A stretch of DNA of 32,065 nucleotides from an uncultured bacterium (GTDB lineage: Bacteria > CSSED10-310 > CAZUFC01): NCBI GenBank assembly GCA_964619725.1, contig CAZUFC010000097.1:1-32065 (forward strand), read 5' to 3'. The notes below the pieces were generated by a model that saw only the letters and a list, made by a program, of their open reading frames with translations, did no database searches and had not been told where the DNA came from. The first letter of the stretch is position 1. The number at the start of each line of letters is the position of its first letter. Made by a program: the position numbers and the translations under genes. Below, piece by piece: positions 1,193 to 23,341 of this stretch.

Positions 1193-4100
1193 TCAGTTTC
1201 TTTTTCTGTTCAAGAGCAGTATACCTCCGAGGATTACCATGACTGCGATAATTCCTGAATTAGTCAAAGCGGGAACGGGGGCTGGAGTAGGAGAGAAAGC
1301 AGGCGTTCGGGTTATATCCGGAGTAGCGGTGAAGGGAGAAGTCGGTTCGACAGTGGGGGCTTCAGTGGGTTCGCCGGTAGGGGCGGTTGTAGGTTCAATT
1401 GTGGGAGCTTGAGTGGGTATTTCGGTTGGAATTGAAGTCGGTTCGGCTGTTGGAGTCAGAGTTGGCGGCAGTGTGGGTCCTTCTGTAGGGGTAAGAGTCG
1501 AAGTTGGGGAGGCAGTCGAAGTCGGGGTAAGGGTAGGAGTATTGGTCGGCGGCGGCGTCGGCGTCAGGGTCGGTGTATCGGTAGGGGTGAACGTAGGCGT
1601 ATGCGTAGGGGTTAATGTCGGACCGAATGTAGGGGAGTCGGTGGGATAAGGCGAAGGCGTGACGGGAGCCGAGCCGCACATTTCCATGTTGTCGATAATG
1701 ACAGAAGCATTGCCGTCCCAATTGTCGGGAATATCGTACATTCTGATTTGGATGTTGCATTGAACGGCGCCTGACGGAGCCGTTTGATCGAGTCTTTCGA
1801 ACACCTGCCATTCATCCGATTCCGTAGAATACCCGCCGTCGACAATGCCGATCATAAAACCGAGGCTGTCTTCCCATCGAATCCAGAGCCGTATTCGTCC
1901 TGCATCGTCATTATCGTAGAAGCGCAGTCTGAAATCGTAGGCTTCGCCGGCGTATACGGGGACTATCTGATAGAGCTCCTGAGTAAGGGGATTGGTCCAG
2001 GTCAGATTACAGGAAGAGTCTCCATAATAGACGTTATCTGTTTCCTGTGAGGCGGAGAAGCCGGTTATCTGGCTGAGCGCCCATCCATCCGGGGGTCCGT
2101 CAGAGCCGTTTTCAAACCATCTTTCAAAACCGGGATTGACGGGAAGATTATCGTAACACATTCCGGGGATCATGGTAGCGGTAGGAGCCAGAGTTGGAAC
2201 TTCAGTGGGAGTGGGCGGACCGGGGGTTTCAGTGAAGAAAGGCGTCGGCGTGAGTCCTGCGAGGCCGCAAGCTTCAATGTTGTCGATAGTAACGGATGCG
2301 TTTCCGTCCCAGAGTTCCGGATCGTCGTACATTCTGATTTGCAGATTGCAGAAAACGGCGCCGGCTGGAGCTGTTTCGTCGAGGGCTTCCAGGTATTGCC
2401 AGGCGAAGGCATCCGTAGAATATCCTCCGTCAGAGGAATCGATGAATCCGCCCTGGCTGTCTTCCCAACGAATCCAGAGCCGTATTCTGCCGGCTGGATC
2501 GTCGTCGTAGTACCGAAGTCTGAAATCATACGTTTCACCGGCTGTGACGACGAACTTCTGATAGAGTTCCTGGGTGACCGTGCTGCTCCAGTTAAGCTTG
2601 CATGAGTATGCTCCGTCAAAGACGAAGAAGATGTCCCGGGAAGCGGAGTATCCCAGGTACTGGCTGAGTTTCCAGCCGTCCGGAGGTCCATAGGGGCCGT
2701 TTTCATCCCAATCTTCGAAACCTGGATTCACGGGGAGATTATCGGCGCACATAGTGGGAATCGGCGTTCCAGTAGAGGTATTTGTGGGTGTTGTCGTAGG
2801 CGAATTGGTTGATGTGGGTGAAGGTGAGCGAGTAGGAGTGTAGGTTACCGTCGGCGTTGGGGTAAGCGTAGGGGTATTTGTTGGAGAAAAAGTCGGAGAT
2901 TGAGTAACGGTAGGAGTGAGCGTCGGTGTCGGCGAAGGCGTGGCCGTGCCGCAATAGTAATTGAACATACCCGTTTCAAGCGCCCAGCCGATCAGGTCGT
3001 CCGTCGGGTTGGAGAAGTGCAGTTCGCATTGATCGCCGTTTTGACAGGTTGGACATACAACCTTGAAAGTCAAGGTAACGAGGCTGCCGTTATTTCCGGC
3101 CGGGATATTTTCGGGATAGGAGAAACCGGCCAGAACGATCTGCCCAACGGTCGGTTCGTTGCATCCGAACATCTGCCATCCCGGATCAAGCGTTCCTTCT
3201 GAGCAAGAGACGTATTGCAGCATGTCCGTGCAATAGTTGAGGGTTATCCCGAACGAGTCCACAGGAGTATCCTGGTTGTCTATCATCACGGTCGTTTCTA
3301 CCATGCTTCCGTGGCATTCCGTGAAATCTTCCAGCCAGATCACATCATTCGTCACAGGAGTAGGAACCGGCGTGGGTTCACAGTAATAAGCGAAGGCGCC
3401 GGATTGATTGGGCCATCCCGTGAAGTCTCCTGAGAGGTTGGTGAAGTTGAGAACGCATTCATCATCGTTTTCGCAGGCAGGACAAGCAACCATGAACGTC
3501 AAAGTAACAATGCTGCCTGTGTTTCCGGCAGGAATTGTATTCGGGTAGGCGAATGCTGCGACCCTTATTTCGCCTGATTCAGGTTCGTAACAGTCGAACA
3601 TTTCCCATCCCGGATCGAGTGTTCCCTCGGAGCAAGAGACGTATTGCAGCATGTCCGTGCAATACTCCATGTAGAACCCGAAAGAATCGACCGCCGTATC
3701 CCCGTTTGAGATCATGACGTCCACGTTGACGGTTTGCCCTGTGCAGCCGGAAAAGTCTTCGAGCCATACAAGGTCAGCCGGCGTAGGAGAAGGCGTTGGC
3801 GTAGGAGGGCAGGAATAGGTGAACAGTCCTGTTTGAACGTCCCATCCGTTGAGGTCGTCTGTGAGATTGTAGAGGAAGAGAGTGTTCTGATCGCCGTTGG
3901 AGCAGATATCGCATTTGACCAGGAATGTAAGTTTGACGAGCGTCCCGTTACTGCCGGCCGGGATGGAGCCCGGATAAGCGAATCCTGCGGCCCTGACTTC
4001 CCCGGGTGCTGGGGCATTGCAATCGAACATCTGCCAATCGGGGTCCAGATCGCCCGATTCACAGCCGACATATTCGATCATGTCCGGTCTGTATCCGAGG

Positions 4101-4756
4101 TAGAACCCGAAGGAATCCACCGGGGTTTCCGGATTTGAGATCATGACGTCGACCTGAATCGTATCGCCGGTGCAGCCGGAAGAGTCTCCGATCCAGATGG
4201 AATCCGCGGCGGCAGGAGTAGGAACCGGCGTCGGTGACGGGCACGAATAAGTGAATGTCCCGCTCTGCGGATTCCAGCCTTCAAGATCACCCGAAAGCTG
4301 GGAAAATTCAAGCAGGCATGTATCGCCGTTATTACAGGATTGGCATACAACCTGAAACGTCAGCTTCACAAGGCTGCCTGAGCTTCCGGCGGGAACGCCG
4401 CCGGGTACGATGAAACCGGCGGCTCTGATTTCTCCGGCGACCGAATCATTGCAGCCGAACATGGTCCAGCCGGGATCGAGATCGCCGGGAGCGCAACCGA
4501 CAAATGCGAGCTTGTCGGCGCAATAGCTTATATAGAATCCGAACGCATCAACGGGCGTATCCGGGTTGGAAATCATGACATCGACTTCAATCGTTTCGCC
4601 GCCGCATCCGGCGAAATCTTCCAGCCAAATGTCATTGCCCCGGGATAAGCCGGCGCCGAACGCGTTCACGGCTGTCACACCTCCAGTAAATGCTGCTGCA
4701 AATGCTGCACAGCCGATCAAAATACTGACCAGAAGGCCTTGTTTTTTCATTTTCAA
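1193..4756 (-). CDS. Scaffoldin-like surface protein: signal peptide, 4 cohesin-like domains, 2 CBM4/9-like (galactose-binding fold) domains, Pro/Thr linkers, IPTL-CTERM-like anchor
   Basis: Four ~131-aa repeats (4241-4633, 3809-4204, 3380-3775, 2951-3346) with the cohesin pattern G.T..VDVMI.N...VD.FG....Y....L..V.C..G.L.....F.....G.I......G.LV.LTF.V. Two NPGFE...IDN.E domains (2267-2749, 1676-2158). C-terminus VPALTNSG + TM helix + RKR. AAGGAG SD. Confidence 0.85.
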   Translation of the reverse strand: MKMKKQGLLVSILIGCAAFAAAFTGGVTAVNAFGAGLSRGNDIWLEDFAGCGGETIEVDVMISNPDTPVDAFGFYISYCADKLAFVGCAPGDLDPGWTMFGCNDSVAGEIRAAGFIVPGGVPAGSSGSLVKLTFQVVCQSCNNGDTCLLEFSQLSGDLEGWNPQSGTFTYSCPSPTPVPTPAAADSIWIGDSSGCTGDTIQVDVMISNPETPVDSFGFYLGYRPDMIEYVGCESGDLDPDWQMFDCNAPAPGEVRAAGFAYPGSIPAGSNGTLVKLTFLVKCDICSNGDQNTLFLYNLTDDLNGWDVQTGLFTYSCPPTPTPSPTPADLVWLEDFSGCTGQTVNVDVMISNGDTAVDSFGFYMEYCTDMLQYVSCSEGTLDPGWEMFDCYEPESGEIRVAAFAYPNTIPAGNTGSIVTLTFMVACPACENDDECVLNFTNLSGDFTGWPNQSGAFAYYCEPTPVPTPVTNDVIWLEDFTECHGSMVETTVMIDNQDTPVDSFGITLNYCTDMLQYVSCSEGTLDPGWQMFGCNEPTVGQIVLAGFSYPENIPAGNNGSLVTLTFKVVCPTCQNGDQCELHFSNPTDDLIGWALETGMFNYYCGTATPSPTPTLTPTVTQSPTFSPTNTPTLTPTPTVTYTPTRSPSPTSTNSPTTTPTNTSTGTPIPTMCADNLPVNPGFEDWDENGPYGPPDGWKLSQYLGYSASRDIFFVFDGAYSCKLNWSSTVTQELYQKFVVTAGETYDFRLRYYDDDPAGRIRLWIRWEDSQGGFIDSSDGGYSTDAFAWQYLEALDETAPAGAVFCNLQIRMYDDPELWDGNASVTIDNIEACGLAGLTPTPFFTETPGPPTPTEVPTLAPTATMIPGMCYDNLPVNPGFERWFENGSDGPPDGWALSQITGFSASQETDNVYYGDSSCNLTWTNPLTQELYQIVPVYAGEAYDFRLRFYDNDDAGRIRLWIRWEDSLGFMIGIVDGGYSTESDEWQVFERLDQTAPSGAVQCNIQIRMYDIPDNWDGNASVIIDNMEMCGSAPVTPSPYPTDSPTFGPTLTPTHTPTFTPTDTPTLTPTPPPTNTPTLTPTSTASPTSTLTPTEGPTLPPTLTPTAEPTSIPTEIPTQAPTIEPTTAPTGEPTEAPTVEPTSPFTATPDITRTPAFSPTPAPVPALTNSGIIAVMVILGGILLLNRKRN

Positions 4757-4786: not shown

Positions 4787-7700
4787 TCAATACAGCTGAT
4801 CGTCTTGCAGTTCATCTACCGGCGTCCATAGCGTCTTGCCTTCCAGATAGTTATGAGTTTCTGCGGGCATCAGTTCACAGAATGTAAATGTCCCGCTGAG
4901 ACCGTTCCAATCCCCGATATCATCGGTAAGATGGGAGAATCCAATGTCGCTCCGTTCGCCGATCCGGCAGCCGTCGCAGGTTACTTTGAACGTAAGAACA
5001 GCCAGAATCTCATTGTTTTCCGCAGGGATGCCCTCTTCAGGATCAGTGAATCCGGCTATTCTGATTTCACCGGCGTTCGGTTCGTTGGCTCCGAACATCA
5101 GCCAGTCGACATCAGGATTACCCTGACGGCATTCAACGAATTCAAGCATGTCGGTTGAGTAATCCAGGGTGACCCCGAATGAATCTAATTGAGCGTCAGG
5201 ATTGGAAATTCTAACTGCAATTTCGACGATCTCGTTTTCACAGCCGGAGGCGTCGTCGATCCATATCATATCATCTTGAGCGAGGGCTTTCAGTAAGGCG
5301 TCAGTTGATTGTGAAATAGGTCCGATCGTTTTCACGTTTTCATTCAATTCATTCTGCGGTGCGGCCGGGAGACCTTTGGACAGAGGGTCGGCGCATTCGC
5401 AATCCATTCCCAGGTAATACATGAACATGCATTGCGCATCGGCTATGGTTACATTGGCGTCGCCGTTACAGTTCGCCGAGCATTCTTCTTCGAATGTAGG
5501 CGTAAAGTATCCCAGAACAATCATGAAGGTGAGCTGGGCGTCGGTGACGGTTATTTGGCCGTCATTATCCACGTCGCCGTCGTTCAAACAGATAAATGTC
5601 GGAGTCACTGTAGGTTCGGCTGTGGGAACCATGGTAGGAATGGGCGTAGTTGTTGCAGAGGGGACAGGCGTAGGCGTGAAATCGTCATTCGTCCAGTTGC
5701 CGTAATCAACGTCATCACTGACCCGTTCAGCGCCTATGTTGTTGTTTCCGTCGTCCATGCAATCATCGACTCCGTACTCGACATCCAGCGGCCCGCCGTA
5801 CATTCCCCAGTAATTGTATTGCGCATTGATGCACGTGGTGGGGTCAGCATTGTATACGGCATAGTTTATGTGACTCGAGAATGAATTGTAATCCATGGCT
5901 GATCCGCCGATGACAGGAAGAGCGGCTGATTCGACGTAAATGCCGTAACCGGCTGAACCGTCGTTATTGGAGTGCAATTCGCAGTTTTTGAATACTGGCG
6001 TTGAATTAGCTCCGGTAACGAAAGCGCCGTATCCGTAATTATCGCGGATTTTCGCGGCATTTACAATTGTGCTTGGAATTCCGCCGACGGCTTCTGAGAC
6101 GTAGATACCGTACTGACTGTTATTTTCTATCTGACCTCCCGTAATTTGCACGGTGCCCGGAGCCGCGTATACGCCGGAGGATGTGTTGTGATGGACGCGG
6201 CAATTGATGAGGGTTGGATTAGCGCTGTTCGTATGGGCTCTGACTCCGTTGCCGGCTCCGAATCCTATCTCACAATCCTGCAAAACCGGTGAACTCTCAT
6301 AACAAAGGACATTTTCGTAAGGATCGCCGGCTCCGCCGTACTCGATGACGCAGTGTTTCAAAGAGGTCACTGCATCGTCGCAGTAATTGGAGAAGTAGAT
6401 GCCCCTCCAATGTCCCGGACTGGGACTGGAAGAATGTGAGGTGAAAACGATGGGATTCGATGGTGATCCTTCAGCTACCAGTGCGCCGGGCAACAGATTA
6501 TTCGAATCATGACCGATAAACATTCCAATTCCGTTGAACAGCAGTTCGCATCCGGGTTCGAGAGTTAAAGTGGTGAGATGATCCGCTCCTGCTTGTCCCC
6601 TGACGTAGACGTCGCCGCTGTGCACATAATACGGTATTCCGTGATCTTCCCAGTAGCTGTCCAGTGAAATGGTGTCGCCGAGAACGTAAAAACGCTGGGT
6701 ATAATTGTACAGGAAGGAGCAGTCCGTAACGCCGCGCACCTTGGAAGCATACATCCTTATGGGGTATGTATAATTAAACAAGAAAGTGCAGCCGTCTACG
6801 AATGCTGAATCCTCCGACCCGTTGCAGTAGAGTCCTGTGCTTCCGTTTTCTTCTATGGTTGAATCCGAGATGTGGATCGTCGCTGTATTGTTGATATAAA
6901 TGCCATAGGTTGAGTTATGCCGGATGGTTGAATCGGATATTTGCATGTCGCTGCCGGTATCGCAATAAATACCATGGCTGCTGGAGTTTCTGATCTCACA
7001 GTATTCGACGACGGGATTTGAATTCTGATAGGAGTAAATGCCCGTTCCGCCGGCATACTCGATCAGACAATGTCTGAGCGTAGGAGATGCATCGATGCAA
7101 TGTACAGCCTCCCAGTTGGAGTAACCGCCGGACATTATTTTACAATGTTCCATCAGGCACAACGAGTCTTCTGAATATTTCTGGAAGATTATGCCGTCCC
7201 AAAAGCCGTGGCTGGGATTCTCCTGTCTTCCAGTGAAAAGGATCGGCTCAGAAGCCGTTCCGACGGCCATTAACCCGCCTGGTTCCGTAACCGTGTCGTC
7301 GTCGCCGATGTATAATCCATCCGTGGACTCAAAATGCAGTTCAGCGCCTTCCTCGATATATAAAGTCGTAACGCTGTCGGCGCCGTCCTGCCCTTTCACG
7401 TACACGTCTCCTGTTATCCAGTAGGGTTCCTTGTCGTGGTTTTCCCAATAGCTGTCCTGGGTGATCGTATCAGGCACTACGTGAAACGCTTCATAATTGT
7501 TACCCTCGAAGGTACAATTGCTGAAGTATCCCATCTGTCGGGCATAAGCGTAAACGGGATAGCCGTTATTGTAAGAGAAGTGACAATTATTAACGGAGAA
7601 GACGTGGGCTGGACTGTCGCTGTAAAATCCGTAGGTGTAATTGCCGGAAATGGTCGTGTTGTCCAGATGGATTCGCGCATTGCTGCTCAAGTAGACGCCG

Positions 7701-10700
7701 TAACTGGTGTTGTCTCTGATGGTTGAATTCGAGATGTGCGCATCGCCGTAATTGTTGGTGTATATGCCATAACTCCGATTTCCTGCTACAATGCAGTCCG
7801 TCATATTTATGTCGCCGTAATTATCGCAGTAAATCCCGTAACTTGTCGCCGCCAGTATATTGCAATGTTCGAATGTCGGATTAGCATGATCGTGGCTGCG
7901 TATATTATACCCGCCGCCGTACTGTATATTGCAATACCTGAAAGTAGGAGCAGAATCGATACAGTAAATCTGTTCGTGAGAGCTGTATCCTCCGAATTCG
8001 ACATCACAGTACTCCATCAGGCAGGCATTATCGTCGGAATATCTGTAATAATAAATTCCCGCCCAGTCATCCTGGCTGGGCGAATCGGACCTGGAGGTAA
8101 ACGTGATCCGCTGTTCGGCCGTACCGACTGCAACAAGCGCTCCGGGATAAAGCGGATCGCTGTTATGACCGATATAGAATCCCACGTTATCATTGATGTA
8201 GAACTCGACTCCGGGAGCCAGCGTCCAGGTGGTTACTTCGTCCGGGCCGTCTTTTCCCTGAACCGTTATCCAACCTTCAATGCAGTAGGGAATCGATCTT
8301 TTTTCCCAGTAGGTGTCCTCGGTAAGAGTATCGCTGCCGGCGGTTATGTATTCCCACCTGTTTCCGCTGAAGGTGCAGGGGCCTATACCGGCGATGTGCC
8401 TGGCTCTCATTCTTATGGGATAACCCTGGTTATCGATGAAAGAGCAGTTCGATATGACGGCGTAATCAGTCGTGTCGTTAGCGTTAATGCCGTAATAATT
8501 CCTGGTGAAAGTCGAGTCTGATACAACGGCAAATGAAGTGCCTGAGGCGTAAATACCATGACTGGCGTTATCATGTATATCCAATCCTGTACCGTTAATG
8601 CTGGAATTGCTGCTGCAATAAATGCCGTAAGATGTGCCGTAAGCTATTTCACAATCTTCGAGAATGGGATTCGACCAGTAATAAGAATAAAAATTGTATC
8701 CCTGCCCTCGCAAGATTCTGCAATGCCTGAAAGTCGGGGATGCGGAATAACAGTAAATATTTTCGTTGGAGCTGTAGCCACCGAACATTACATCGCAATA
8801 TTCCATCAGGCAGATGGAATCGTCTGAAAAATCGTAGAAGTAAATTCCATCCCAGTATCCGTGTGAATTCTCAAAACCTGTAAAGGTAATGCGTTGTCCT
8901 GCCGTTCCCACTGCGTAAATACCGCCGGGTTCGCCCGGGTTATTGGAACCGATCCATAAGCCTTGTTGATGATCAAAAACCAGTTCAGCGCCGGGTTCAA
9001 TAGTGATAGTGGTAACGAAATCAGCGCCATCTGTTCCCTTGACGTAGATATCTCCGGCTATCCGGTAAGGTATGTGTTGATTAATCCAGATGCAGTCTGT
9101 TCCGATGGTATCGCCGACGACATAGATCATGTTGGGCACGTCAGGCGTGATGGGCATCATGAATGTATTCGGAGGCAGGCCGATGTTTTTGACGTGTTTG
9201 GCATAGATATAAATCGGTCCGTTAAGGTTGTTGAAGAAGACGTTGTCGGTGATCACCGGCGAGATGGCGTCCGTGTTGCAGTAAATGCCGTAACCGCCGC
9301 TGTCGGCTATCAGGTTGCCGCTGATTACTGTTTCTCCTTCCACCGTCAGGTAAATCGCATGATATCCGTTCGCGGAATCTGAAAGAGTGCAGTCGGTTAT
9401 GCTGCCGTAAGAATTGTCGAAGTGTATGTTGTATTCGCCCGTTTCAATAACCGTACAACCATTGATGACAGGAGCTGAATCAAGGGCATAAATTCCGCTG
9501 TCGAAGGCATACCTGATCGTGCAGTTGGTCAGTGTCGGACTGGCGGAATTGCACGAAACGGGATAATACTTAACGCTGGAGACATACTGTCCGCCGTATT
9601 CGATAACGGTATGATTCAGTTCGCAGAGAGCATCATCCGAGTATTGCGCAAAATACACATCTCTCCAGGAGCCCGGTACCGGGACATCGCTCGTCGACGT
9701 TATAACCACAGGATTCATGTCGGTTCCCGATGTGATCAAAGCTCCGGGATAATTCGAGTTCGAATCATGACCGATGATTATACGCGCCTGGTCAGGCAAT
9801 TTGACGACTGTTCCGGCGAGAAGCGTAAGGGTCGTGACGTTGTCGGCCCCTGATTGCCCCTGAACGGTGAATCCGTTCGTCATGTAGAAAGCGGCTCCCG
9901 GGTCTTCCCAGACGGCATCAATGGACAGAGTTTCCGCTATGACATAAACATCTTTATCGACTGTGCTTCCCGTGATGTTCTGGCATTTTCCGCCGTAAGT
10001 ATAGATGCTGTAGTCGGCAGCATTGTTGGAAATCACAGCATTGGTGATGAAAGGACCGCAGGAACTGTCGTTGCAATAGATGCCGTATCCGCCGTTACTG
10101 TCTATCAGGCAATCGCTGACTGTCGGTTCTGCCGGTCCGCCGGTTACGTATAAGCCATGATCGGCGCTGTCGGTAATATCGCAGCCGATAAATGTGGGAG
10201 AACATGAATTACTGTGAATGCCGTAAGAACTGGAATATTCGACGACGCAATTATTCATCAAGGAATCGTCGTCAGCATAATTCAGGAATTGAATGCCCTC
10301 CCAGGTTCCCATTGCGTCGATGCCGGTGAAGAAAATCCGGTCTCCGCCGGAACCGTCGGCTATTAATTCGCCGGGCAGATTTGAATCCGTGTCGTGCCCG
10401 ACCGTCAATCCCACCGCAGAATCAAATTCGAATTCCGCTCCCGGTTGAATCGTGACCGTGGTTACGGCATCCGGTCCGGCCTGACCCATAATGGATACAT
10501 CGCCCAATATGCGATAGGGAATGCCCTGGTCGTGCCAGATACCATCAAGAGCCACTGTGGCTCCTGCGCATTCAATAAAGGAATTTCCGTTGCCGGAAAA
10601 AATATTCCCCGCGGTGAATCCTATCCGGTTGGCGCCAAGCCGCAAAGGCGTGCCTGTATTGTTGGTGAACAGGGAATCGGTCAGGGATATCAGACATGTC

Positions 10701-11425
10701 CCGTCGACTGTGTAGATTCCGTATCCGCCGTTACTGGAAAAATTCCCGTCGCTGATATCGAGAGAACCAGTTGTAGCCCCGTATACGCCATGATCCCCAT
10801 TATTCTGTGAAGAAGAATCCGTTACGACAAGCATCGAGGAACCTTCCGCAGCGATTCCGTACGTCCCGTTATCAGAAAAATCCGTGAACGAAAACGACGG
10901 TGAACTGCCCGCTACCGCCCTAACTCCGGATGTAATGCTGTATTGGATGTTGCAATGGCTGAAGGATGCTTCCGAATCTTCCAGATACACCATACCGCTG
11001 TTGGCTCCGCCTCCGTAGGAAATGTCCGTATACGTCAGCATACTGTCGTCGGAATTGTCCCTGAAATACAAGGTTTGCCAGTCGCCCGCCGCCGGCGTTG
11101 TCTGGGCTGAAGTGAAAATTACGGGGGTTCCCGATGTTCCCTGGGACAATAAACATCCGTATTCCCCGCTTGCACCGCCGACATAAAAGTTCATGTCCTG
11201 GTTGAATAAAACCTGAACGCCTGCCTCGATCTCTAATGTAGCTCCGTCCGTTATCGTTATGTCGCCCGTTACTATATAAACTCCGTCAGGCGACGGGTCG
11301 CTCGTTCCCCACGTCGTGTCCGAGGTTATAGCGCCCGAAACGTTTATTGATCCATAAACGGACGAACTGCACGCGAGCATCAGAAAAACGATTACTGTTA
11401 ATTGATACTTAATTGAATTCGACAA
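4787..11425 (-). CDS. Giant secreted right-handed parallel beta-helix repeat protein with C-terminal dockerin and cohesin domains
   Basis: TTG start with a GGAGGAGG SD and a signal peptide. Seven large modules (..PY.I.GD..V.G..G.D.VTT.TI.PG...W.GI.F) with many N..YGIY beta-helix coils. After a PT linker come a dockerin (DGDVDNDGQITVTDAQ / ANCNGDANVTIADAQ, ~5385-5590) and a cohesin (~4877-5275) homologous to those of the downstream gene. Confidence 0.85.
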   Translation of the reverse strand: MSNSIKYQLTVIVFLMLACSSSVYGSINVSGAITSDTTWGTSDPSPDGVYIVTGDITITDGATLEIEAGVQVLFNQDMNFYVGGASGEYGCLLSQGTSGTPVIFTSAQTTPAAGDWQTLYFRDNSDDSMLTYTDISYGGGANSGMVYLEDSEASFSHCNIQYSITSGVRAVAGSSPSFSFTDFSDNGTYGIAAEGSSMLVVTDSSSQNNGDHGVYGATTGSLDISDGNFSSNGGYGIYTVDGTCLISLTDSLFTNNTGTPLRLGANRIGFTAGNIFSGNGNSFIECAGATVALDGIWHDQGIPYRILGDVSIMGQAGPDAVTTVTIQPGAEFEFDSAVGLTVGHDTDSNLPGELIADGSGGDRIFFTGIDAMGTWEGIQFLNYADDDSLMNNCVVEYSSSYGIHSNSCSPTFIGCDITDSADHGLYVTGGPAEPTVSDCLIDSNGGYGIYCNDSSCGPFITNAVISNNAADYSIYTYGGKCQNITGSTVDKDVYVIAETLSIDAVWEDPGAAFYMTNGFTVQGQSGADNVTTLTLLAGTVVKLPDQARIIIGHDSNSNYPGALITSGTDMNPVVITSTSDVPVPGSWRDVYFAQYSDDALCELNHTVIEYGGQYVSSVKYYPVSCNSASPTLTNCTIRYAFDSGIYALDSAPVINGCTVIETGEYNIHFDNSYGSITDCTLSDSANGYHAIYLTVEGETVISGNLIADSGGYGIYCNTDAISPVITDNVFFNNLNGPIYIYAKHVKNIGLPPNTFMMPITPDVPNMIYVVGDTIGTDCIWINQHIPYRIAGDIYVKGTDGADFVTTITIEPGAELVFDHQQGLWIGSNNPGEPGGIYAVGTAGQRITFTGFENSHGYWDGIYFYDFSDDSICLMEYCDVMFGGYSSNENIYCYSASPTFRHCRILRGQGYNFYSYYWSNPILEDCEIAYGTSYGIYCSSNSSINGTGLDIHDNASHGIYASGTSFAVVSDSTFTRNYYGINANDTTDYAVISNCSFIDNQGYPIRMRARHIAGIGPCTFSGNRWEYITAGSDTLTEDTYWEKRSIPYCIEGWITVQGKDGPDEVTTWTLAPGVEFYINDNVGFYIGHNSDPLYPGALVAVGTAEQRITFTSRSDSPSQDDWAGIYYYRYSDDNACLMEYCDVEFGGYSSHEQIYCIDSAPTFRYCNIQYGGGYNIRSHDHANPTFEHCNILAATSYGIYCDNYGDINMTDCIVAGNRSYGIYTNNYGDAHISNSTIRDNTSYGVYLSSNARIHLDNTTISGNYTYGFYSDSPAHVFSVNNCHFSYNNGYPVYAYARQMGYFSNCTFEGNNYEAFHVVPDTITQDSYWENHDKEPYWITGDVYVKGQDGADSVTTLYIEEGAELHFESTDGLYIGDDDTVTEPGGLMAVGTASEPILFTGRQENPSHGFWDGIIFQKYSEDSLCLMEHCKIMSGGYSNWEAVHCIDASPTLRHCLIEYAGGTGIYSYQNSNPVVEYCEIRNSSSHGIYCDTGSDMQISDSTIRHNSTYGIYINNTATIHISDSTIEENGSTGLYCNGSEDSAFVDGCTFLFNYTYPIRMYASKVRGVTDCSFLYNYTQRFYVLGDTISLDSYWEDHGIPYYVHSGDVYVRGQAGADHLTTLTLEPGCELLFNGIGMFIGHDSNNLLPGALVAEGSPSNPIVFTSHSSSPSPGHWRGIYFSNYCDDAVTSLKHCVIEYGGAGDPYENVLCYESSPVLQDCEIGFGAGNGVRAHTNSANPTLINCRVHHNTSSGVYAAPGTVQITGGQIENNSQYGIYVSEAVGGIPSTIVNAAKIRDNYGYGAFVTGANSTPVFKNCELHSNNDGSAGYGIYVESAALPVIGGSAMDYNSFSSHINYAVYNADPTTCINAQYNYWGMYGGPLDVEYGVDDCMDDGNNNIGAERVSDDVDYGNWTNDDFTPTPVPSATTTPIPTMVPTAEPTVTPTFICLNDGDVDNDGQITVTDAQLTFMIVLGYFTPTFEEECSANCNGDANVTIADAQCMFMYYLGMDCECADPLSKGLPAAPQNELNENVKTIGPISQSTDALLKALAQDDMIWIDDASGCENEIVEIAVRISNPDAQLDSFGVTLDYSTDMLEFVECRQGNPDVDWLMFGANEPNAGEIRIAGFTDPEEGIPAENNEILAVLTFKVTCDGCRIGERSDIGFSHLTDDIGDWNGLSGTFTFCELMPAETHNYLEGKTLWTPVDELQDDQLY

Positions 11426-16827: not shown

Positions 16828-18921
16828 TCAAGGTCCGTAACCCCATTCCGCGGAATCGGATTCTCCTAATATTTGACTCATTTCCTCATTGAGCATAGCG
16901 CCGAAGAAGAGGAGTCCGTTCATGGAGTCATCGCCGGTATCCGGCCAGGTAAAGGGAGAAACGGCATAGATGGAGCGTGATCCGACAGGGACGTTAACGT
17001 TCATATAATCGATGTCCCCGGAATAGGGAGGGTTCCAGCATGCCCAGGAGGGCCAGAAATAGTATGCTTCAAAGACTTCAAGAAGAAAAAACAGGGGTAC
17101 GTGATTCAATGGTTCGGGGCCGGGATTATTGAGATGCCCCCTAACCCAGAATTCTTCCTGAGGGCTGATTCTGGATGCGGCGAGTTCCAAACGAACGCCT
17201 AATTCAACGACGGGCGTGTTGGTAGGTTGGGGATAAGGTGTGGGTATAACGGTAGGAGTAGGCGTAAAGTAGAGATTGGTGACGGGAAGCATCAGGCAGG
17301 ATGGATGTTCGGCATCGGAATGAATGGTATTTTCCGCGATTCTTGTTTCATCGTCAAATCGGAAAGGCTTGCCGGTATTCGGATTAGGATCGAAACGGGG
17401 ATGATTGGAGGAGGAGACGGCTAGGCGAATGCGATGACCTGCATTAAAGGCGATGGCTGTCGACCAGAGATCGATTTGACATTCGACGATTTCTCCCGGC
17501 GTTAAAAAATCTTCCCGGTCCATTCCGATACGGCGCCGAACACGAAGGATGCCGTCCAAAACCAGCATGGAACGACCGTCCGGATATACGTCGGTCAGCT
17601 TGGCGGTAAGGTCCGTATCAGGGCAATCCGAAGACAGATATAATCGGCAGATCAAAGGACCGACTATTTCAACGGATTCCTCAAGTATTTCCGTTTCATA
17701 AATCAGCACGTCCTGACGAGTTTCGATGGACCTCTGATCGTATGGTCCGGCAGGTAGAATAAGATTGGCGCCTCCCAGGGTCGGAACAGGGTTTTCAGGA
17801 TCATAGACAAAAGTCCGTGCCGGTTCGTTCGACGAGGGATACAGCCAGTCAAGACTTCCATCGCCGTGGAGATATAACGGATAAATTCGAGCATCCGCGG
17901 GCCAGTTCTCTGAAGTCCTCCATTCGTTACCGGGAGCATCAGGATCATCCACATCGCCCATGACGTAAAAATGCACGGGAGGTCTGTCCATTATCCCTGT
18001 ATTCTCATCTTTAAGCCAGTATTCAACCCACTCCCCGAAATATTCTGAAAATTCATCATTGAACCTGGACCCTTCGGGATAGGTTAATTCGCCTTGAGCA
18101 AGACTGCTGAAACCTCCATGAGTCCAAGGTCCGATCAGGAGCATCTGGTTTCCTCGAGCGCCGTCGCCGCCGTTATATTGTCGGCCGGTGAACGCGTTGA
18201 TGGTTCCCTGTGTGAAAATGTCGTACCAGCCCCCGATATGAACGCCCGGCGCTTGAATGAAAGGTTCTCTCCTTTCTGCGTTAACCGGATGCCAGTAAGG
18301 ACCGTAATCAGGATGAGCTTCGATTTCGGGAAGTTTAAAACTGCTTCCCTGCCCTTTAAGCCATCCCTCGACCATGGCTTTACGAAAAGAACCGCCTTGA
18401 AACATGGCTTGCGAATACAAATCGGTAGCGGCAACCTGTATCCATTGACAGGTCAGATGCGGCGGAACAGCGCCGGCCATCATTATTTGAGTGATCCCCA
18501 GCGCAGAGCCGCCGAGGGTCGCAATTCTTCCTTCGGCCCATTCCTGGGCGGCAACCCATTCCACGGTATCATATCCGTCTCTATTTCCGGACCATCCGTC
18601 GTCGAAAAATATGCCGTCGATCCCTTCGGAATCAAAACGTCCACGGCAATCCTGAACCACCAGCGAGTACCCGTACTCGGTTACATAAGCCTGATCCTGG
18701 CAACCGGATTTGCCGTAAACCGTTCGTATCAGCATAGTCGGCCATGGACCCTCTTCTTCATCAGGAATATAAACATCCGTCGCCAATCGCGTTCCATCGG
18801 TCATGGGTACCATCTCCGTCCAATGCTGATATGCCGATGCCGGCCGTATTTGTCCAATAACGTGAAAAAACAATAAGGACAGTATTGAAAGGAATTCAAG
18901 ATAACCAATTTTCCTTCTCAT
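16828..18921 (-). CDS. Secreted CocE/NonD (peptidase S15 / PepX-C) family serine hydrolase with PT linker and conserved C-terminal domain
   Basis: Motifs MTDGTRLATDVY, QDCRGRFDSEG, GGSALG (nucleophile), GGWYD, GPWTH, FVYDPENPVPT, RLAVSSSNHPRF. Signal peptide and AGAGGAGG SD. CTD at ~16828-17210. Confidence 0.92.
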   Translation of the reverse strand: MRRKIGYLEFLSILSLLFFHVIGQIRPASAYQHWTEMVPMTDGTRLATDVYIPDEEEGPWPTMLIRTVYGKSGCQDQAYVTEYGYSLVVQDCRGRFDSEGIDGIFFDDGWSGNRDGYDTVEWVAAQEWAEGRIATLGGSALGITQIMMAGAVPPHLTCQWIQVAATDLYSQAMFQGGSFRKAMVEGWLKGQGSSFKLPEIEAHPDYGPYWHPVNAERREPFIQAPGVHIGGWYDIFTQGTINAFTGRQYNGGDGARGNQMLLIGPWTHGGFSSLAQGELTYPEGSRFNDEFSEYFGEWVEYWLKDENTGIMDRPPVHFYVMGDVDDPDAPGNEWRTSENWPADARIYPLYLHGDGSLDWLYPSSNEPARTFVYDPENPVPTLGGANLILPAGPYDQRSIETRQDVLIYETEILEESVEIVGPLICRLYLSSDCPDTDLTAKLTDVYPDGRSMLVLDGILRVRRRIGMDREDFLTPGEIVECQIDLWSTAIAFNAGHRIRLAVSSSNHPRFDPNPNTGKPFRFDDETRIAENTIHSDAEHPSCLMLPVTNLYFTPTPTVIPTPYPQPTNTPVVELGVRLELAASRISPQEEFWVRGHLNNPGPEPLNHVPLFFLLEVFEAYYFWPSWACWNPPYSGDIDYMNVNVPVGSRSIYAVSPFTWPDTGDDSMNGLLFFGAMLNEEMSQILGESDSAEWGYGP

Positions 18922-19218
18922 CTTCCGGCATCCTCCTCTCTGTTCGCATTTGATCCAATAACCCGACCGATTAACTTAACAATAACGGTTTCAGGTGAAT
19001 TATCCCAAGCTCCGATGACAAAAACGGAAAATCTCCTATGCTCACATTCCTGTTTCAAAATATTCACCGATTGCCGTGGAATTCAGTTGAACATCATGAT
19101 CCGCCTGCTCATCAGAACGGTAAGCAAATCTAATCATAGCAGCGGCAGTGTTGTTTTTCCAGTTTTAAGATAAAATCAGCGACTGACGGAGGTTGCCGCT
19201 GCGCAGCCTGCAGGCGGT

Positions 19219-19244
19219 TGCCGGGGGTCAGAGTCCTTTGCCGG
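19219..19244. repeat. REP-like palindromic element, degenerate copy
   Basis: Reverse complement ccggcaaaggactctgacccccggc shares the core aagg(a/g)ctctgacccc with the hairpin at 28121-28145. Confidence 0.45.
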
Positions 19245-19271
19245 TTTGTCCTCCGTTCAACGCAGTATGGG

Positions 19272-19299
19272 TTGACGAAACATTTTGTTGTGATAATAT
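19272..19299 (+). promoter_or_regulatory. Sigma70-type promoter for the GH57 operon
   Basis: TTGACG, 16-nt spacer, TAATAT, with an extended -10 TG at 19291-19292. It ends 67 nt before the ATG at 19367. Confidence 0.65.
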
Positions 19300-19366
19300 C
19301 TTTTCAAAGATGGAAGCGGTTTTTGTATGTTTCCATCATAAGGAAGGACGAAACTGAGAGGGGCGC

Positions 19367-22111
19367 ATGAAAAAGATATTGACCTATTTTTTTGTTTTTA
19401 TTGTAACCGGGTCGATGTTTGCAGATTCTGCGAATGCTGATCCGCCTATTTACATTTCTTTTTTATGGCATATGCATCAGCCTATTTACGTGCCTTATGA
19501 CGAACCGTATCAGACGATACAATGGAACGGTCCCCAGGGCGGCCCTTCGTTTTCTTACAGTCTTCATGAGATGTGGTCCAGCAAGACAGGGCCTTACAAG
19601 GGATGGTCGGTTGATGCGGTGGAGACGGCGATGAATGCGGGATTGGGGCACGCCGGCGCGCAGATCGATTTATCGGGGAGTCTGATAGAGAGTCTCAACA
19701 ACCTGGATTTTCATGACTGGAATTGGGACACTTATGGGGGCTGGAAGGATCGTTTTTCCCAGGGACTATCCTGGCAGACGGATTTGGGGAACCCGCGATT
19801 AGACGTCATAGCCTTTCCTTATCATCATCCCATTATCGGTTTGTTGAATCACAAGGCCTTAAGGATGCAGTTTCTGACTCACCGCAAACTGTTCACGGAC
19901 AATTTTTCCTGTGGGTATTCGCAGGGGTTGTTTCCGCCCGAGACGGCATTCACGGAGCGAGCGATACCTGTTTTAGCATCGTTGGGTATTGAGTGGGTGA
20001 TTATCGACAATATCCATTTAAGCCGGACATTAAGCGATTATCCCTGGACGGGCAGTTCAGGGGTTGTTGAGCCTAATGTTTCAGATCAGCGCAACGGAAC
20101 GCTGTCTCAGGTTGATCCGGATTCAGCCTGGATTCAATTGAACGGTGTGTGGGCGCCTGAGAAGGTATGTTCCTGGGCCTACAGGCCGCATTACATCAGT
20201 TGGACGAGTCCGGAAACGGGAATGGAGGAGAGAATCGTAGCAGTCCCCGGCGCCTGTTACATGGGCAATGAAGATGCAAGAGGCGGTTTCGGAGCGTTGC
20301 AGTATGAAACGGTGATGGGACAACTGGAGAGTTACAACACTGATCCTGAGCATCCAATATTAATTGTGCTGCATCATGATGGAGAAAATTACGGCGCCGG
20401 CGTGGAATCGTATTATCATTCAAATTTTCAGAATTTTGTAAACTGGTGTCTGGCGAATCCTGACCGCTTTGTGCCCACGACGATTCAGGACTATCTGGAG
20501 ATGTTTCCTCCTGATCCTTCTGACGTAGTTCATATTGAGAATGGGGGTTGGATAGGGGCCGGCTGTCTTTCTCCGGAATTCCATCATTGGCTGGGGGACC
20601 CGGAAGACGGTTACAGTCCTGATTGGAACAGTTGGGCAGTTATGACGGCTGCCGAGAACTGGGTCATGACTGCCGATGATGTTTCTCCCTGGAGCGACCT
20701 GGGTCATATAGTTTATGGAAACGGTACTGAGACGGAGAAAGCCTGGCGGTATTTTCTGTGCGCCCAGGCGAGTTGTTACGAATACTGGGAAGGGGGCGCT
20801 GACCAGGATATATGGAATTCCAATCCGACCAGGGCCTGCAATGCAGCGGTACAGCATGCGGAAAACGCCGTCGGCGGCAGCGCAGACAATGTCGGACCCA
20901 CCATTTTTCCGCCTCAGAGGGAGCCTTACAATCCCGGAGGACTCGAATGGGGAGTAACGCAGCCTTCGGAATTCGAAGTCTGGAGCTTTATCTACGACGT
21001 GAGCGGAGTGGAATCGGCTTATGTCTATTACAGAACAGACCATGACGGAGAAGTGGACAGCGGTAATATGACGTATGCCGGAGGCGACTGGCATGCGGCA
21101 TCGATGAGCTCTGAAGCTTTTTCTTCTCAGACGATAATCGATCCGATTTACAAGGCTGAGCGATATTACGCTGCGGTTGACGGCGGCGAGGCGAATATTT
21201 TGATCGATTATTACATCGAGGCTTCGGATACGCAAGGCAATATTGCAAAAAGTCACATCGAGCATGTTTTCGTAGGGGCTTCAGAATTTAACCAGGATGT
21301 ATATTGGAAACCTTCGCATCCTCATAAAAATCAGGCTGTTACGGTTTATATTCAGAACTATCCGACATCGGGCAAGTTGCATTGGGCCGTCAACGGATGG
21401 TCCGAACCTGAAGATTTTTACTGGCCTGAAGGGTCTCAATTTTACGATGGAGGACCGGCAGTGGAGAGTCCGCTGCTGGGTCCGGACCAGGAAGACCGTC
21501 TTTACATTGAGCTAGGTCCTTTCGATAATCCCGGACAAAGCGTGGAATGGGTCGACTTCGTCATTCATTTCGACAATAACGAATGGTGGAACAACGACGG
21601 GAACGATTATCACATATACATTGATCAGAATACCCCTACTCCGACATTTACTCAGAATCCGCAATCCACTCGCACTCCGACTTGCACACCGACTTGCACA
21701 CCGACTTGCACTCCGACGGGTTTTTATACTTTTGCTCCCACGGTCACCCCTCCTCCTTCACTGATTGAAATAGAATGTCTTTTGTCCCGCACGGAATTCA
21801 GGGCCGGCAACACGTTCGATTACGTCGTTTCAATGCAGAATGAGGGGACGGACAGGCTGGTTAACCTGGTCGTTATGCTGGAAGCCTACGGCGAATTCTA
21901 CTTCTGGCCTTCCTGGATCAATAATGACATCGATTGGGAACAGCGATATTTGTACGCTTCATCAACCCTGAGAGAATCGATTCTGTCCTTTGAATGGCCG
22001 GAGAACGCCGGAAGCGGTAATGCTTTATTATGGTCCGCCGTCTTTTCCCCCGAAGAATTTACCGCTTATTTCCTGTTGGATTTTTGTTCTGCAGGATTCT
22101 CCTGGCATTGA
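19367..22111 (+). CDS. Secreted glycoside hydrolase family 57 (alpha-glucan active) with putative starch-binding module, PT linker and conserved C-terminal domain
   Basis: Signal peptide. Motifs WHMHQPIY, YHHPI, FPPETAF (catalytic Glu) and HHDGENYG (catalytic Asp). CBM-like segment LHWAVNGW...WWNNDGNDYHI. CTD at ~21761-22111. Confidence 0.85.
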   Translation: MKKILTYFFVFIVTGSMFADSANADPPIYISFLWHMHQPIYVPYDEPYQTIQWNGPQGGPSFSYSLHEMWSSKTGPYKGWSVDAVETAMNAGLGHAGAQIDLSGSLIESLNNLDFHDWNWDTYGGWKDRFSQGLSWQTDLGNPRLDVIAFPYHHPIIGLLNHKALRMQFLTHRKLFTDNFSCGYSQGLFPPETAFTERAIPVLASLGIEWVIIDNIHLSRTLSDYPWTGSSGVVEPNVSDQRNGTLSQVDPDSAWIQLNGVWAPEKVCSWAYRPHYISWTSPETGMEERIVAVPGACYMGNEDARGGFGALQYETVMGQLESYNTDPEHPILIVLHHDGENYGAGVESYYHSNFQNFVNWCLANPDRFVPTTIQDYLEMFPPDPSDVVHIENGGWIGAGCLSPEFHHWLGDPEDGYSPDWNSWAVMTAAENWVMTADDVSPWSDLGHIVYGNGTETEKAWRYFLCAQASCYEYWEGGADQDIWNSNPTRACNAAVQHAENAVGGSADNVGPTIFPPQREPYNPGGLEWGVTQPSEFEVWSFIYDVSGVESAYVYYRTDHDGEVDSGNMTYAGGDWHAASMSSEAFSSQTIIDPIYKAERYYAAVDGGEANILIDYYIEASDTQGNIAKSHIEHVFVGASEFNQDVYWKPSHPHKNQAVTVYIQNYPTSGKLHWAVNGWSEPEDFYWPEGSQFYDGGPAVESPLLGPDQEDRLYIELGPFDNPGQSVEWVDFVIHFDNNEWWNNDGNDYHIYIDQNTPTPTFTQNPQSTRTPTCTPTCTPTCTPTGFYTFAPTVTPPPSLIEIECLLSRTEFRAGNTFDYVVSMQNEGTDRLVNLVVMLEAYGEFYFWPSWINNDIDWEQRYLYASSTLRESILSFEWPENAGSGNALLWSAVFSPEEFTAYFLLDFCSAGFSWH
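21677..21712 (+). repeat. 12-bp tandem repeat x3 encoding PTCT in the GH57 linker
   Basis: ccgacttgcaca ccgacttgcaca ccgacttgcact. Confidence 0.9.
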
Positions 22112-22126: not shown

Positions 22127-23341
22127 ATGAGGTTTAAAATGTATTTTTTTTCGTATTTTCGTTTGTGCCGCAGACTTATATTCCTTGTATTCATAAACTG
22201 TTGTTTGTTCTGTTTGGATACTCACGACAGCGCTTATGCTGCAGGATTTAATTTCATGAATGCGAAGGCTATGGGCATGGGAGGAGCTTATTGTGCGCTG
22301 GCCGAAAGCGCAGGTGCGCCTTACTGGAATCCCGCCGGCCTCGCGTTCAGAAAAAGTTATGGACTCACTTTTGAGACTTCTGAATTCCAGCGCACTCAAC
22401 CTCATATTGAATCCAGGCTGGAAGATGCCTATTCCTTGCCGCCCATGGATGAAACCGTGTATGACGATGCGGAAGCGACGGAAACTCTGGTCAGACGACT
22501 TAAAGACCTGAATGACATAGACATCGGCGCTGTAAGGAGTAAAACGATGACCTTTTCGATATTGAGCGCCGGCGGAGCCATGATCGTTCGTGAGATAGAC
22601 GAACTCTGGTTCAGACCGATAATCGACCTGGAAAATATTGAATCAGCCCCTCCTGAAGAAGAAAACTCCATTGCTGACAATGATTCCAGGATAGAATTCA
22701 CCGGCATTAAAGGAACTGAATTCGACATATCTTTTTCCAATTTGCATCCTGAAGCGAAAGCGGCCTGGGGAGTAACGGTAAAATATGTAACCGGCAAAAC
22801 TTACAGACATTCCAGGTCGATCTGGAATCTGGATTCAGAAAACGATTCTGATGAGTTGCTGGACAGAGTCGACAGGTATGAAGAGCAGCAGGATGAGTAT
22901 TGGAGTGCGGATATGGGACTGATATTGTTTATGGGTAACGGCAGATTGGGTTTCGTCGGACATGATGTGTTTCGTCCCAAACTTGAAAGAAAAAATGAGG
23001 AGGCGATTGAAATAGCGCCTTCCTACAGGATCGGTTTTTCGCAGAGTTTTTCCAGGAATTTTCTGATGGCGGTGGATTACGATTTAACGAAAAACAAATA
23101 TGAAAACGAATATGCCGGGAAAAAGCATATTAGTTTCGGTTTGCAGAAGTGGTTTGGAAACAGGAAGAAGTTCGGATTGAGAGCCGGTCTGTTGCGGGAT
23201 TTTGAGGCGGATGAGAATGAAATTGTATACACGACGGGTTTGGGAATAATGACGAAAATCGTCGAAGGAAATGTCGGAATTGCTTTTGATAATGAAAAGA
23301 ATCAATTCGGTTGGTCGTTCGATTTAAAAATAGATTTTTAA
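22127..23341 (+). CDS. Outer-membrane beta-barrel of the FadL/PorV/TraF-like superfamily
   Basis: N-terminal hatch motif AKAMGMGGAY....A.YWNPAGLA, amphipathic strands and terminal Phe (FDLKIDF). Start codon uncertain. Confidence 0.75.
   Translation: MRFKMYFFSYFRLCRRLIFLVFINCCLFCLDTHDSAYAAGFNFMNAKAMGMGGAYCALAESAGAPYWNPAGLAFRKSYGLTFETSEFQRTQPHIESRLEDAYSLPPMDETVYDDAEATETLVRRLKDLNDIDIGAVRSKTMTFSILSAGGAMIVREIDELWFRPIIDLENIESAPPEEENSIADNDSRIEFTGIKGTEFDISFSNLHPEAKAAWGVTVKYVTGKTYRHSRSIWNLDSENDSDELLDRVDRYEEQQDEYWSADMGLILFMGNGRLGFVGHDVFRPKLERKNEEAIEIAPSYRIGFSQSFSRNFLMAVDYDLTKNKYENEYAGKKHISFGLQKWFGNRKKFGLRAGLLRDFEADENEIVYTTGLGIMTKIVEGNVGIAFDNEKNQFGWSFDLKIDF

Follow-up and report, generated by a model that had tools for sequence, protein, structure and literature searches.

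Two unrelated, putatively secreted hydrolases encoded in the window (the whole 32,065-nucleotide stretch of DNA that was analysed) end in homologous copies of an unnamed domain, some 105-120 residues long and predicted by structural models to fold on its own as an Ig-like beta sandwich. The same domain is present in 222 copies in the source genome and forms the end of roughly 2-3% of all genes in the majority of genomes from candidate division CSSED10-310, a barely studied, uncultured phylum; seemingly it is a lineage-specific tag, an "address" shared by the secreted proteins throughout most of this group. Among the possible meanings of such an address we favour a cell-surface anchoring or docking module, a reading whose probability we would place a little short of even. 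The features concerned are the following:

16828..18921, minus strand: open reading frame of a CocE/NonD-family (S15) hydrolase precursor, 697 aa, with the tail
18832..18921, minus strand: signal-peptide-like N-terminus of the CocE/NonD protein (aa 1-30, ...PASA/YQ), predicted from the translation, which reads MRRKIGYLEFLSILSLLFFHVIGQIRPASA/YQ
17212..17268, minus strand: Pro/Thr linker of the CocE/NonD protein, FTPTPTVIPTPYPQPTNTP (translation)
16831..17211, minus strand: C-terminal domain copy 1, ending ...EWGYGP and then the stop (profile envelope 16831-17214, AlphaFold2)
19367..22111, plus strand: open reading frame of a GH57-like protein precursor, 914 aa, with the tail
19367..19438, plus strand: signal-peptide-like N-terminus of the GH57-like protein (aa 1-24, ...SANA/DP), predicted from the translation, which reads MKKILTYFFVFIVTGSMFADSANA/DP
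21629..21760, plus strand: Pro/Thr(/Cys) linker of the GH57-like protein, NTPTPTFTQNPQSTRTPTCTPTCTPTCTPT...TVTPPPS (translation)
21761..22108, plus strand: C-terminal domain copy 2 (alignment, profile envelope 21743-22108, AlphaFold2)
22127..23341, plus strand: outer-membrane beta-barrel gene (TraF_2/FadL/PorV-like), separated from the upstream GH57 gene by 15 bases (Pfam/NCBIfam)

The minus-strand protein is recognized by TIGR00976 CocE_NonD (377 bits) and by the Pfam models Peptidase_S15 and PepX_C, the plus-strand protein by Pfam Glyco_hydro_57 (46.6 bits, over residues 144-224 only) and by Ig_N_CWD1 (36.1 bits). A first-pass annotation of the sequence had proposed that both carry a signal peptide, a Pro/Thr linker and a shared tail, and all three elements are recognizable: signal-peptide-like N-termini and linkers can be read from the two translations, and the profile envelopes bear out the domain limits given at the time (about 16828-17210 and 21761-22111). 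The tails are 28% identical over 120 columns (BLASTP E 5e-8 in a single comparison), and the motifs noticed earlier, YFWPSW, DIDY/DIDW, FTWPD/FEWPE and LLFFGA/LLWSA, do occupy identical columns of the alignment; the GH57 copy is of a short subtype, without the insert of some six residues that follows FWPSW. This similarity is not a matter of chance, since the same genome holds a large family of such tails: a profile built from the two found at least 150 further places (E 7e-35 to 1e-9), and the iterated HMM converged at 222 copies, spread over 221 reading frames, in this genome of 9.2 Mb (G000). The proposed homology is thereby borne out. The broader suggestion of a lineage-specific export, attachment or docking domain, according to which an HMM scan should return many C-terminal copies confined to one lineage and outside any named family, is likewise supported by what the scan returned, the function itself being something that we infer.

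The usual order in these proteins is signal peptide, cargo, Pro/Thr linker and finally the domain, and its terminal position is strongly conserved. A stop codon lies within five residues of the domain in 207 of the 222 copies of the source genome and in 96 of the 101 evaluable copies at loci of other genomes, while among public proteins 141 of 152 domain matches (in the best 150 representatives) are no more than eight residues from the end. The expectation that the domain would always be C-terminal is thus right for the great majority of the copies but not for all: eight of the 222 are more than 20 residues from the stop, including conserved N-terminal copies on FGE-sulfatase proteins, where the domain is directly behind the signal peptide or internal (C153, of 914 aa, and C179, with the public proteins P0062 and P0073). 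Internal copies were an outcome that the first-pass annotation had named as speaking against its proposal. Apparent stand-alone proteins consisting of a signal peptide and the domain were set aside; these short frames start inside linkers and look broken or split.

The linker is a common feature too: at least 40% Pro+Thr is found in the 30 residues upstream of 136 of 213 copies, versus 3.4% of background windows. A crude signal-peptide rule is passed by 174 of 208 domain-bearing frames and by 349 of 800 control frames, an unspecific rule in that 44% of the controls pass. In a random sample of 40 of the 194 eligible frames, Pfam matches were obtained in 23, all of exoenzyme or surface type (S8 and M14 peptidases, three of each, C25 with its propeptide, PAD_porph, alpha-amylase, 5'-nucleotidase, EEP nuclease, LVIVD, FG-GAP and BNR/Sortilin), so that the cargo is a mixture of S8/M14/C25 peptidases, arginine deiminase, amylase, nucleotidases and repeat proteins. 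The domain itself is strongly acidic, with a median net charge of -13, and rich in aromatic residues (17.6%); its K+R content is 2.7%, against 4.7% in the cargo part and 12.1% in control frames. Acidity was rejected as a domain-specific property, the cargo part being acidic too.

The AlphaFold2 models (pLDDT 95.7 and nine strands for copy 1, pLDDT 81.2 and the same strand order for copy 2) have no helix, and the nearly invariant Trp-Pro sits in the loop after strand 7. Eight positions are 83-97% conserved despite a median pairwise identity of just 28%, whereas the residues past the final strand show no conservation and the last residue is variable (E in 61 copies, P in 35, Y in 19, others in the rest). 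The AlphaFold and Foldseek check proposed in the first-pass annotation gave an Ig-like sandwich whose neighbours are generic CARDB-like ones alone: the top Foldseek match is CARDB (PDB 3idu, E 5.5e-4, TM 0.50-0.58), for which the VIA comparison gave Z 8.5, within the commonly seen range, and an rmsd of 3.2 over 101 residues; the best Z overall was 9.3, and ESM Atlas leads score 0.80-0.82. Such generic fold matches, with Foldseek TM values near 0.5, are uninformative on the ligand. Pfam and NCBIfam models match neither tail, none of 36 domain members matches Pfam at E <= 0.1, the best match among PDB sequences is not significant (E 0.052), nor is the one match to Gram_pos_anchor (E 0.29), and the Pfam and PDB sequence searches gave no match to a characterised CBM family; the earlier view that the tail belongs to no named family therefore stands. 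CARDB and DUF11 (PF07705, PF01345) are the best structural neighbours and have in common with the tail an N-x-G turn after strand 2, but CARDB is usually found as internal repeats and the tail is a single terminal module, unmatched in all 36 members by these or any other Pfam models.

With respect to its distribution, the domain is present in 10 of the 13 other genomes of CSSED10-310 (the name being that of the record titles) and in none of 27 genomes of other phyla, in keeping with the lineage restriction suggested earlier. Individual genomes carry between 57 and over 100 copies, even one of just 2.6 Mb; genomes G006 and G009 have 57 and 81. A genome labelled Saccharibacteria also holds a protein with a signal peptide, a Pro/Thr linker and the domain. 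In public data, 2,409 clusters at 50% identity carry the domain (E <= 1e-3), a clean family for a new Pfam or NCBIfam model, and the records call its bearers "hypothetical protein". A search with the tail can list in one step a secreted or surface proteome of proteases, amylases, nucleotidases and adhesin-like repeat proteins. Titles and abstract openings of the literature on C-terminal sorting domains in candidate phyla held nothing relevant. The accessible parts of the paper devoted to CSSED10-310 (PMC8248873) make no mention of the domain and predict Gram-negative cells for the phylum. The FadL and TraF_2 barrels and the GT9 heptosyltransferase encoded in the window, along with the secretins found in all five genomes searched, can also be counted for a diderm envelope.

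In the anchoring explanation that we favour, Sec would carry the precursor across the inner membrane by means of its N-terminal signal peptide, and the outer membrane would then be crossed, possibly by a type II-like route, because secretins are present. The terminal module would hold the enzyme non-covalently at the surface, on an abundant envelope component for which a surface glycan or LPS, or else a surface protein, is a candidate, and the Pro/Thr linker would form an extended stalk between this anchor and the catalytic part. Pro/Thr-rich stalks before the anchor are typical of LPXTG and PGF-CTERM proteins. The extracytoplasmic nature of the cargo, the linkers and the confident beta-sandwich models are all consistent with such an arrangement, and the N-terminal and internal copies on FGE-sulfatases fit a binding module and not a signal that needs a free C-terminus. 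Judged by analogy, the usage of the tail resembles that of a dockerin or SLH-type anchor more than that of a cleaved leader. While 12 of the 20 C25-like frames of the source genome end in the domain, four of the six in the related genome G006 have a dockerin within the same frame; if a known docking module can replace the tail on homologous cargo, this would speak for a similar role. On the other side, the terminal position in 93-95% of the copies is stricter than is usual for binding modules and like that shown by sorting signals, the cargo appears to mirror that of type IX secretion (T9SS), and neither a receptor nor any family that tracks the domain was found.

The likeness to dockerins (PF00404) extends to their being terminal modules behind a linker on diverse exoenzymes, and the choice between the two modules on C25-like cargo varies by genome. 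The tail differs from them in being all-beta, without a calcium-binding helical pair and without a Pfam match, and in having no repeated receptor that could be found. Moreover, canonical dockerins and cohesins co-occur with the tail and persist where it is absent: models of both find matches in each of the 14 phylum genomes, three of which have no copy of the domain. The suggestion that the domain itself docks on cohesins accordingly finds no support. Cohesins were also rejected as a specific partner; among the matches listed for the source genome, the domain is carried by none of the six dockerin frames and by none of the 16 cohesin frames.

Genes in the neighbourhood of the domain were examined in the source genome (613 neighbours, 5,775 crude genes). 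Two large repeat-protein families are enriched (uncorrected p about 1e-4), and in one small TonB-dependent receptor family four of the six members are no more than two genes away from a gene with the domain (uncorrected p 1.6e-3), a surface logic that we count for the anchor; no other families stood out in this analysis. The barrel gene next to the GH57 gene (TraF_2 45.7 bits; PorV_fam 33.5 bits, below the cut-off of 90) is reported as context only. It was considered as a shuttle and rejected: only one of its two paralogues in the genome adjoins a domain gene, and homologues are encoded by each of the 14 phylum genomes, the three domain-free ones included. Neither this barrel nor the cohesins track the domain across genomes, and no other receptor or machinery was found. 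The tail poses a defined question, namely which receptor or machinery recognizes it in a diderm group in which the searches detected no type IX translocon. Should the module prove to be a portable surface anchor, it might serve as a display tag.

The main rival to anchoring is that the tail is a secretion or sorting signal of an undescribed pathway of outer-membrane translocation and attachment, parallel to T9SS but with unrelated machinery, in which the outer membrane would be the site where the tail is read and perhaps also cut off; we regard this as possible, with the balance tilted against it. The C-terminal domain (CTD) of T9SS substrates acts as a secretion signal and is removed by cleavage, the cargo being attached to anionic LPS; this cargo includes C25, PAD_porph, M14 and S8 proteins. 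There are several parallels with the present tails: both are Ig-like sandwiches at the extreme C-terminus of unrelated, Sec-exported cargo, a single genome can hold tens to hundreds of copies of either, the cargo is similar in kind (the four classes just named), and a lineage-restricted range is common to other sorting systems as well. LPXTG, PEP-CTERM, GlyGly-CTERM and PGF-CTERM, for example, are also lineage-specific C-terminal tags on many secreted proteins. Those tags, however, combine a motif with a transmembrane helix and a basic tail, unlike the globular, acidic beta domain described here. Against a sorting signal there is the lack of any candidate machinery, the conserved FGE-sulfatases with their N-terminal or internal copies, the variable end residues and the long Pro/Thr stalks before most copies, which would suit a retained tether.

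A more elaborate version would have the domain mark the substrates of an undescribed secretion-and-attachment pathway peculiar to CSSED10-310, a counterpart of T9SS assembled from unrelated parts, whose receptor is also exploited by the Saccharibacteria-labelled organism, an epibiont that would dock on such hosts with its acquired domain protein. This scenario we consider rather unlikely.

It is quite unlikely, in our estimation, that the tail serves adhesion or substrate binding, directed at environmental particles, polymers or other cells and not at the envelope of its producer. Such a function would accord with the CARDB, CBM-like and glycosidase accessory sandwiches among the fold neighbours, with the abundance of aromatic residues and with the domain protein of the Saccharibacteria-labelled genome. 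Nevertheless, the cargo, with its peptidases, nucleotidases and nucleases, is far wider than the carbohydrate-active enzymes, in which respect, as in the lack of a family match, the tail differs from characterised CBMs; and a single module on so large a share of the genes suggests a cellular address instead of a substrate.

A highly diverged T9SS CTD, served by a cryptic and diverged T9SS, is very improbable, and at the level of sequence largely refuted. A C-terminal Ig-like domain on signal-peptide cargo is indeed what these proteins have, but that feature alone is not specific to T9SS, even when the cargo is T9SS-like. There is also a short stretch, F-x-W-P-D-T-G...G-L-x-F-Y-G, that locally resembles the T9SS motif W-D-x-x-x-x-G-V-Y-F-Y, and sub-cut-off PorV-like barrels and PorU-like C25 peptidases are present. 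Nonetheless, the type A model (TIGR04183/PF18962) differs from the tail in length (72 positions versus about 113), and the tail is mostly preceded by a long Pro/Thr linker and is also found N-terminally. TIGR04183 has no match in the source genome and none in 12 of the 14 genomes of the phylum, compared with matches in 42 of 107 genomes outside it, and an hhalign comparison of 36 tails with 19 T9SS CTDs of the control genome G077 gave a probability of 1.9% over 18 aligned columns, so the early remark that the tail is not of type A was correct. As for the machinery, SprA (TIGR04189) is unmatched in G000, G003, G005, G006, G007 and G009 (control G077, 568 bits), and SprA_N (PF14349) is unmatched in all 14 phylum genomes, which are 60-96% complete (control, 153 bits). 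The best PorU score (NF033707) is 230 bits, below the cut-off of 420 (control, 738 bits), with much lower scores in G006 and G009 despite their many copies of the domain; for PorV (NF033709) the best is 43 bits, below the cut-off of 90 (control, 265 bits). The GldM and PorP/SprF models find no match in the T9SS-positive control genome itself. The tail-less, PorU-like C25 peptidase that gives the 230-bit score (C69 of G000) was tried as a sortase and rejected; its neighbourhood is not conserved, and G006 and G009 have no comparable match.

Finally, an inert structural or stabilising Ig domain without an addressing role is hardly credible: secreted enzymes often contain Ig-like spacers, and the fold resemblances are of a general kind, but mere spacers do not stay at the very end of the chain, after a flexible linker, in over 90% of some 220 unrelated proteins, nor would they be expected to hold eight positions so constant in such divergent sequences.

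Two genes, recognised by their open frames and family matches, are divergently placed in the window:

16828-18921, minus strand: CocE/NonD (S15) hydrolase gene, 697 aa
19367-22111, plus strand: GH57-like protein gene, 914 aa

As read from the translations, both proteins have signal-peptide-like N-termini and Pro/Thr linkers ahead of their last ~120 residues. These tails are 28% identical over 120 columns (BLASTP E 5e-8), and the motifs that the first-pass annotation had quoted as common to both do fall in the same alignment columns. No Pfam or NCBIfam model matches either tail.

A profile of the two tails matches at least 150 places in the source genome (G000; 9.17 Mb in 344 contigs, the window being contig C97; completeness 90.9%, contamination 6.5%), and an iterated HMM run on all its stop-to-stop frames of at least 60 aa converged at 222 matches of this domain in 221 frames. 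The domain ends at most 5 residues from the stop codon in 207 copies, 6-20 residues from it in 7 and farther away in 8. The copies are both old and diverged (median pairwise identity 28%, 5-95% range 19-41%). Despite this divergence eight positions are 83-97% conserved: the Asn of an N-P-G turn, a Leu, the P and W of F-W-P-x-W, the F-x-W-P of F-x-W-P-D and the Phe of an F-Y-G-A strand. Residues beyond the last strand show no conservation.

Among 41 genomes searched, the domain was present in 10 of the 13 other genomes of candidate division CSSED10-310 and in no genome of the 27 from other phyla. The positive genomes of the phylum have from 57 (in one of 2.6 Mb) to more than 100 copies each, while G001, G002 and G004 were still negative at E 0.01. 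When the GTDB species genomes were scanned with a pattern, 113 stretches were confirmed; 75 loci were kept, from 12 assemblies by accession prefix, under the titles 'candidate division CSSED10-310', unnamed 'bacterium', one 'Verrucomicrobiota' MAG and one 'Candidatus Saccharibacteria' chromosome. Of the 101 copies in these loci that could be evaluated, 96 have their end no more than 5 aa from the stop. A representative library of 1.84 billion proteins contained 2,409 matching clusters at E <= 1e-3 and 2,040 at E <= 1e-10; for seven matches, the one name given by any source was 'hypothetical protein', on a single match, and the others are unnamed.

The Saccharibacteria chromosome (G121, 0.84 Mb) encodes a 655-aa protein (L062:2426-4393, +) that carries a signal peptide and long Pro/Thr linkers and ends in the domain (E 1.8e-35); elsewhere this genome has a second, weak match (E 9.4e-9). 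The gene sits amid housekeeping genes (pseudouridine synthase, FtsX, PHP) with a local GC of 0.49 against 0.34-0.39 around it; it could have moved from a CSSED10-310 host into an epibiont, or the chromosome could be misassembled here. The one strong copy in the 7.2-Mb Verrucomicrobiota MAG (G122, L053, E 3.9e-43) looks like a binning stray, since it is single and on a short contig of 15 kb.

The AlphaFold2 model of the CocE tail, made with 36 paralogous tails, is a nine-strand beta sandwich (pLDDT 95.7, pTM 0.86), and that of the GH57 tail has the same strand order (pLDDT 81.2). Foldseek against the PDB put the CARDB domain 3idu on top, but weakly (E 5.5e-4, TM 0.50-0.58); a structure search of all PDB representatives gave a GH66 N-domain (Z 9.3) and CARDB and complement MG domains (Z 8.5), values in a common range, and the ESM Atlas leads, towards CARDB and NPCBM_assoc, all stayed under 0.85. 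None of the 36 tails matches Pfam at E <= 0.1, and a profile search of the PDB sequences found nothing significant (best E 0.052). Such generic structural neighbours, together with the lack of a family or PDB sequence match, put the predicted fold in an ordinary class (Ig-like) and leave the sequence family unnamed. As a shared terminal address module the domain belongs to a known kind, of which it is a new family. We found no mention of it in the paper dedicated to CSSED10-310 or among titles on C-terminal sorting domains, and to our knowledge nothing is known about the cell surface of this phylum.

The domain is not detectable as a CTD of type IX secretion (T9SS), and the searches revealed no T9SS translocon. 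That the type A CTD model can find its targets is shown by its matches in 42 of 107 genomes from outside the phylum; it has none in G000-G011. An alignment of the tail profile with a profile of 19 CTDs from a T9SS-positive control genome (G077) gave a probability of 1.9%. Both results agree with the first-pass annotation, which had seen no type A signature here. The model does match G012 at 1 place and G013 at 10; these are among the least complete genomes of the phylum (78% with 5% contamination and 69% with 3%, respectively), neither has a SprA_N match as well, and contaminant contigs may be responsible. SprA_N was found in 0 of the 14 phylum genomes, and SprA, by TIGR04189, in none of G000, G003, G006 and G009; the control scores 568 bits for SprA and 153 for Pfam SprA_N. 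The only matches of the PorU and PorV models, to C25 peptidases and FadL-like barrels of the ordinary sort, fall below the cut-off. Models for GldM and PorP/SprF did not match the control genome and so carry no weight here.

It is quite possible, if still tentative, that the domain is a retained surface anchor, and this is favoured over a cleaved signal. At least 40% Pro+Thr is present in the 30 residues upstream of 136 of 213 copies, against 3.4% of random windows from the same proteins, and tethered modules are built in this way, with a long Pro/Thr stalk ahead of a globular module at the terminus. The non-terminal copies argue likewise, because they are conserved rather than noise: in conserved FGE-sulfatase proteins (C153 and the public P0062 and P0073) the domain directly follows the signal peptide, and in C179 it lies between two FGE domains, so the module would seem to work away from a free C-terminus. 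Finally, homologous C25-like cargo swaps the domain for a dockerin: 12 of 20 such frames in G000 end in the domain and 4 of 6 in G006 have a dockerin, the two never occurring in one frame among those checked. Against an anchor stand the very strict terminal position, the resemblance of the cargo to that of T9SS and the lack of a known receptor; an undescribed secretion signal is the less probable reading. The two readings are not exclusive, since the T9SS CTD does both jobs.

As a receptor for such an anchor, the cohesins of the window, suggested as docking partner in the first-pass annotation, are a poor candidate, because canonical cohesins and dockerins are present in 14 of 14 phylum genomes, with the domain or without it. 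The GH57 gene is followed after 15 bases by a barrel gene, but this has just two paralogues, and domain-less genomes have homologues of it as well. Enrichment among the neighbours of domain-bearing proteins (carriers) was nowhere strong; in a small TonB-dependent receptor family 4 of 6 members are no more than two genes away from a carrier (p 1.6e-3, uncorrected), an arrangement that recalls surface enzyme plus transporter pairs. Secretins occur in 5 of 5 genomes searched, which makes a type II-like route available. Four phylum genomes have secretin and cohesin domains in one open frame (847, 771, 791 and 718 aa), which suggests an outer-membrane secretin displaying a cohesin. The features concerned are:

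1193-4756, minus strand: cohesin protein, 1187 aa, three cohesin stretches, without the tail
4787-11425, minus strand: beta-helix/NosD-repeat protein, 2212 aa, adjoining the cohesin protein, without the tail
G000:C3:29950-32136, plus strand: TonB-dependent receptor, starting 58 bases after a carrier stop
G000:C145:7899-10094, plus strand: another of the four TonB-dependent receptors within two genes of a carrier
G000:C12:73423-74469, plus strand: secretin-cohesin frame (also G009:C26, G006:C16 and G003:C74)

A crude, custom signal-peptide rule passed 174 of 208 carriers and, being unspecific, also 349 of 800 control frames; several of the carriers that failed it have an obvious signal peptide at a more internal position. 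In a Pfam scan of a random 40 of the 194 eligible G000 frames, 23 had matches and the other 17 none. The cargo comprised peptidases (S8 three times, M14 three times, C25 with its propeptide, a C39-like peptidase), other enzymes (PAD_porph, alpha-amylase, 5'-nucleotidase, EEP nuclease, lactonase) and repeats and other modules (beta-helix, LVIVD, FG-GAP, Sortilin/BNR twice, CarboxypepD_reg arrays, CBM30, RskA_C, Ig_N_CWD1). As a set, the carriers differ in composition from the bulk, presumably cytoplasmic, proteome: Lys+Arg makes up 4.7% of their cargo parts and 2.7% of the domain, compared with 12.1% of control frames. The 221 carrier frames of G000 are also acidic (net charge per 100 aa -9.9, against -1.1 in control frames). 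Many C25 (gingipain-like), M14 and PAD_porph enzymes are exported by G000, and the Lys+Arg depletion might either keep the organism's own Arg/Lys-directed enzymes from attacking its exoproteins or mirror its habitat.
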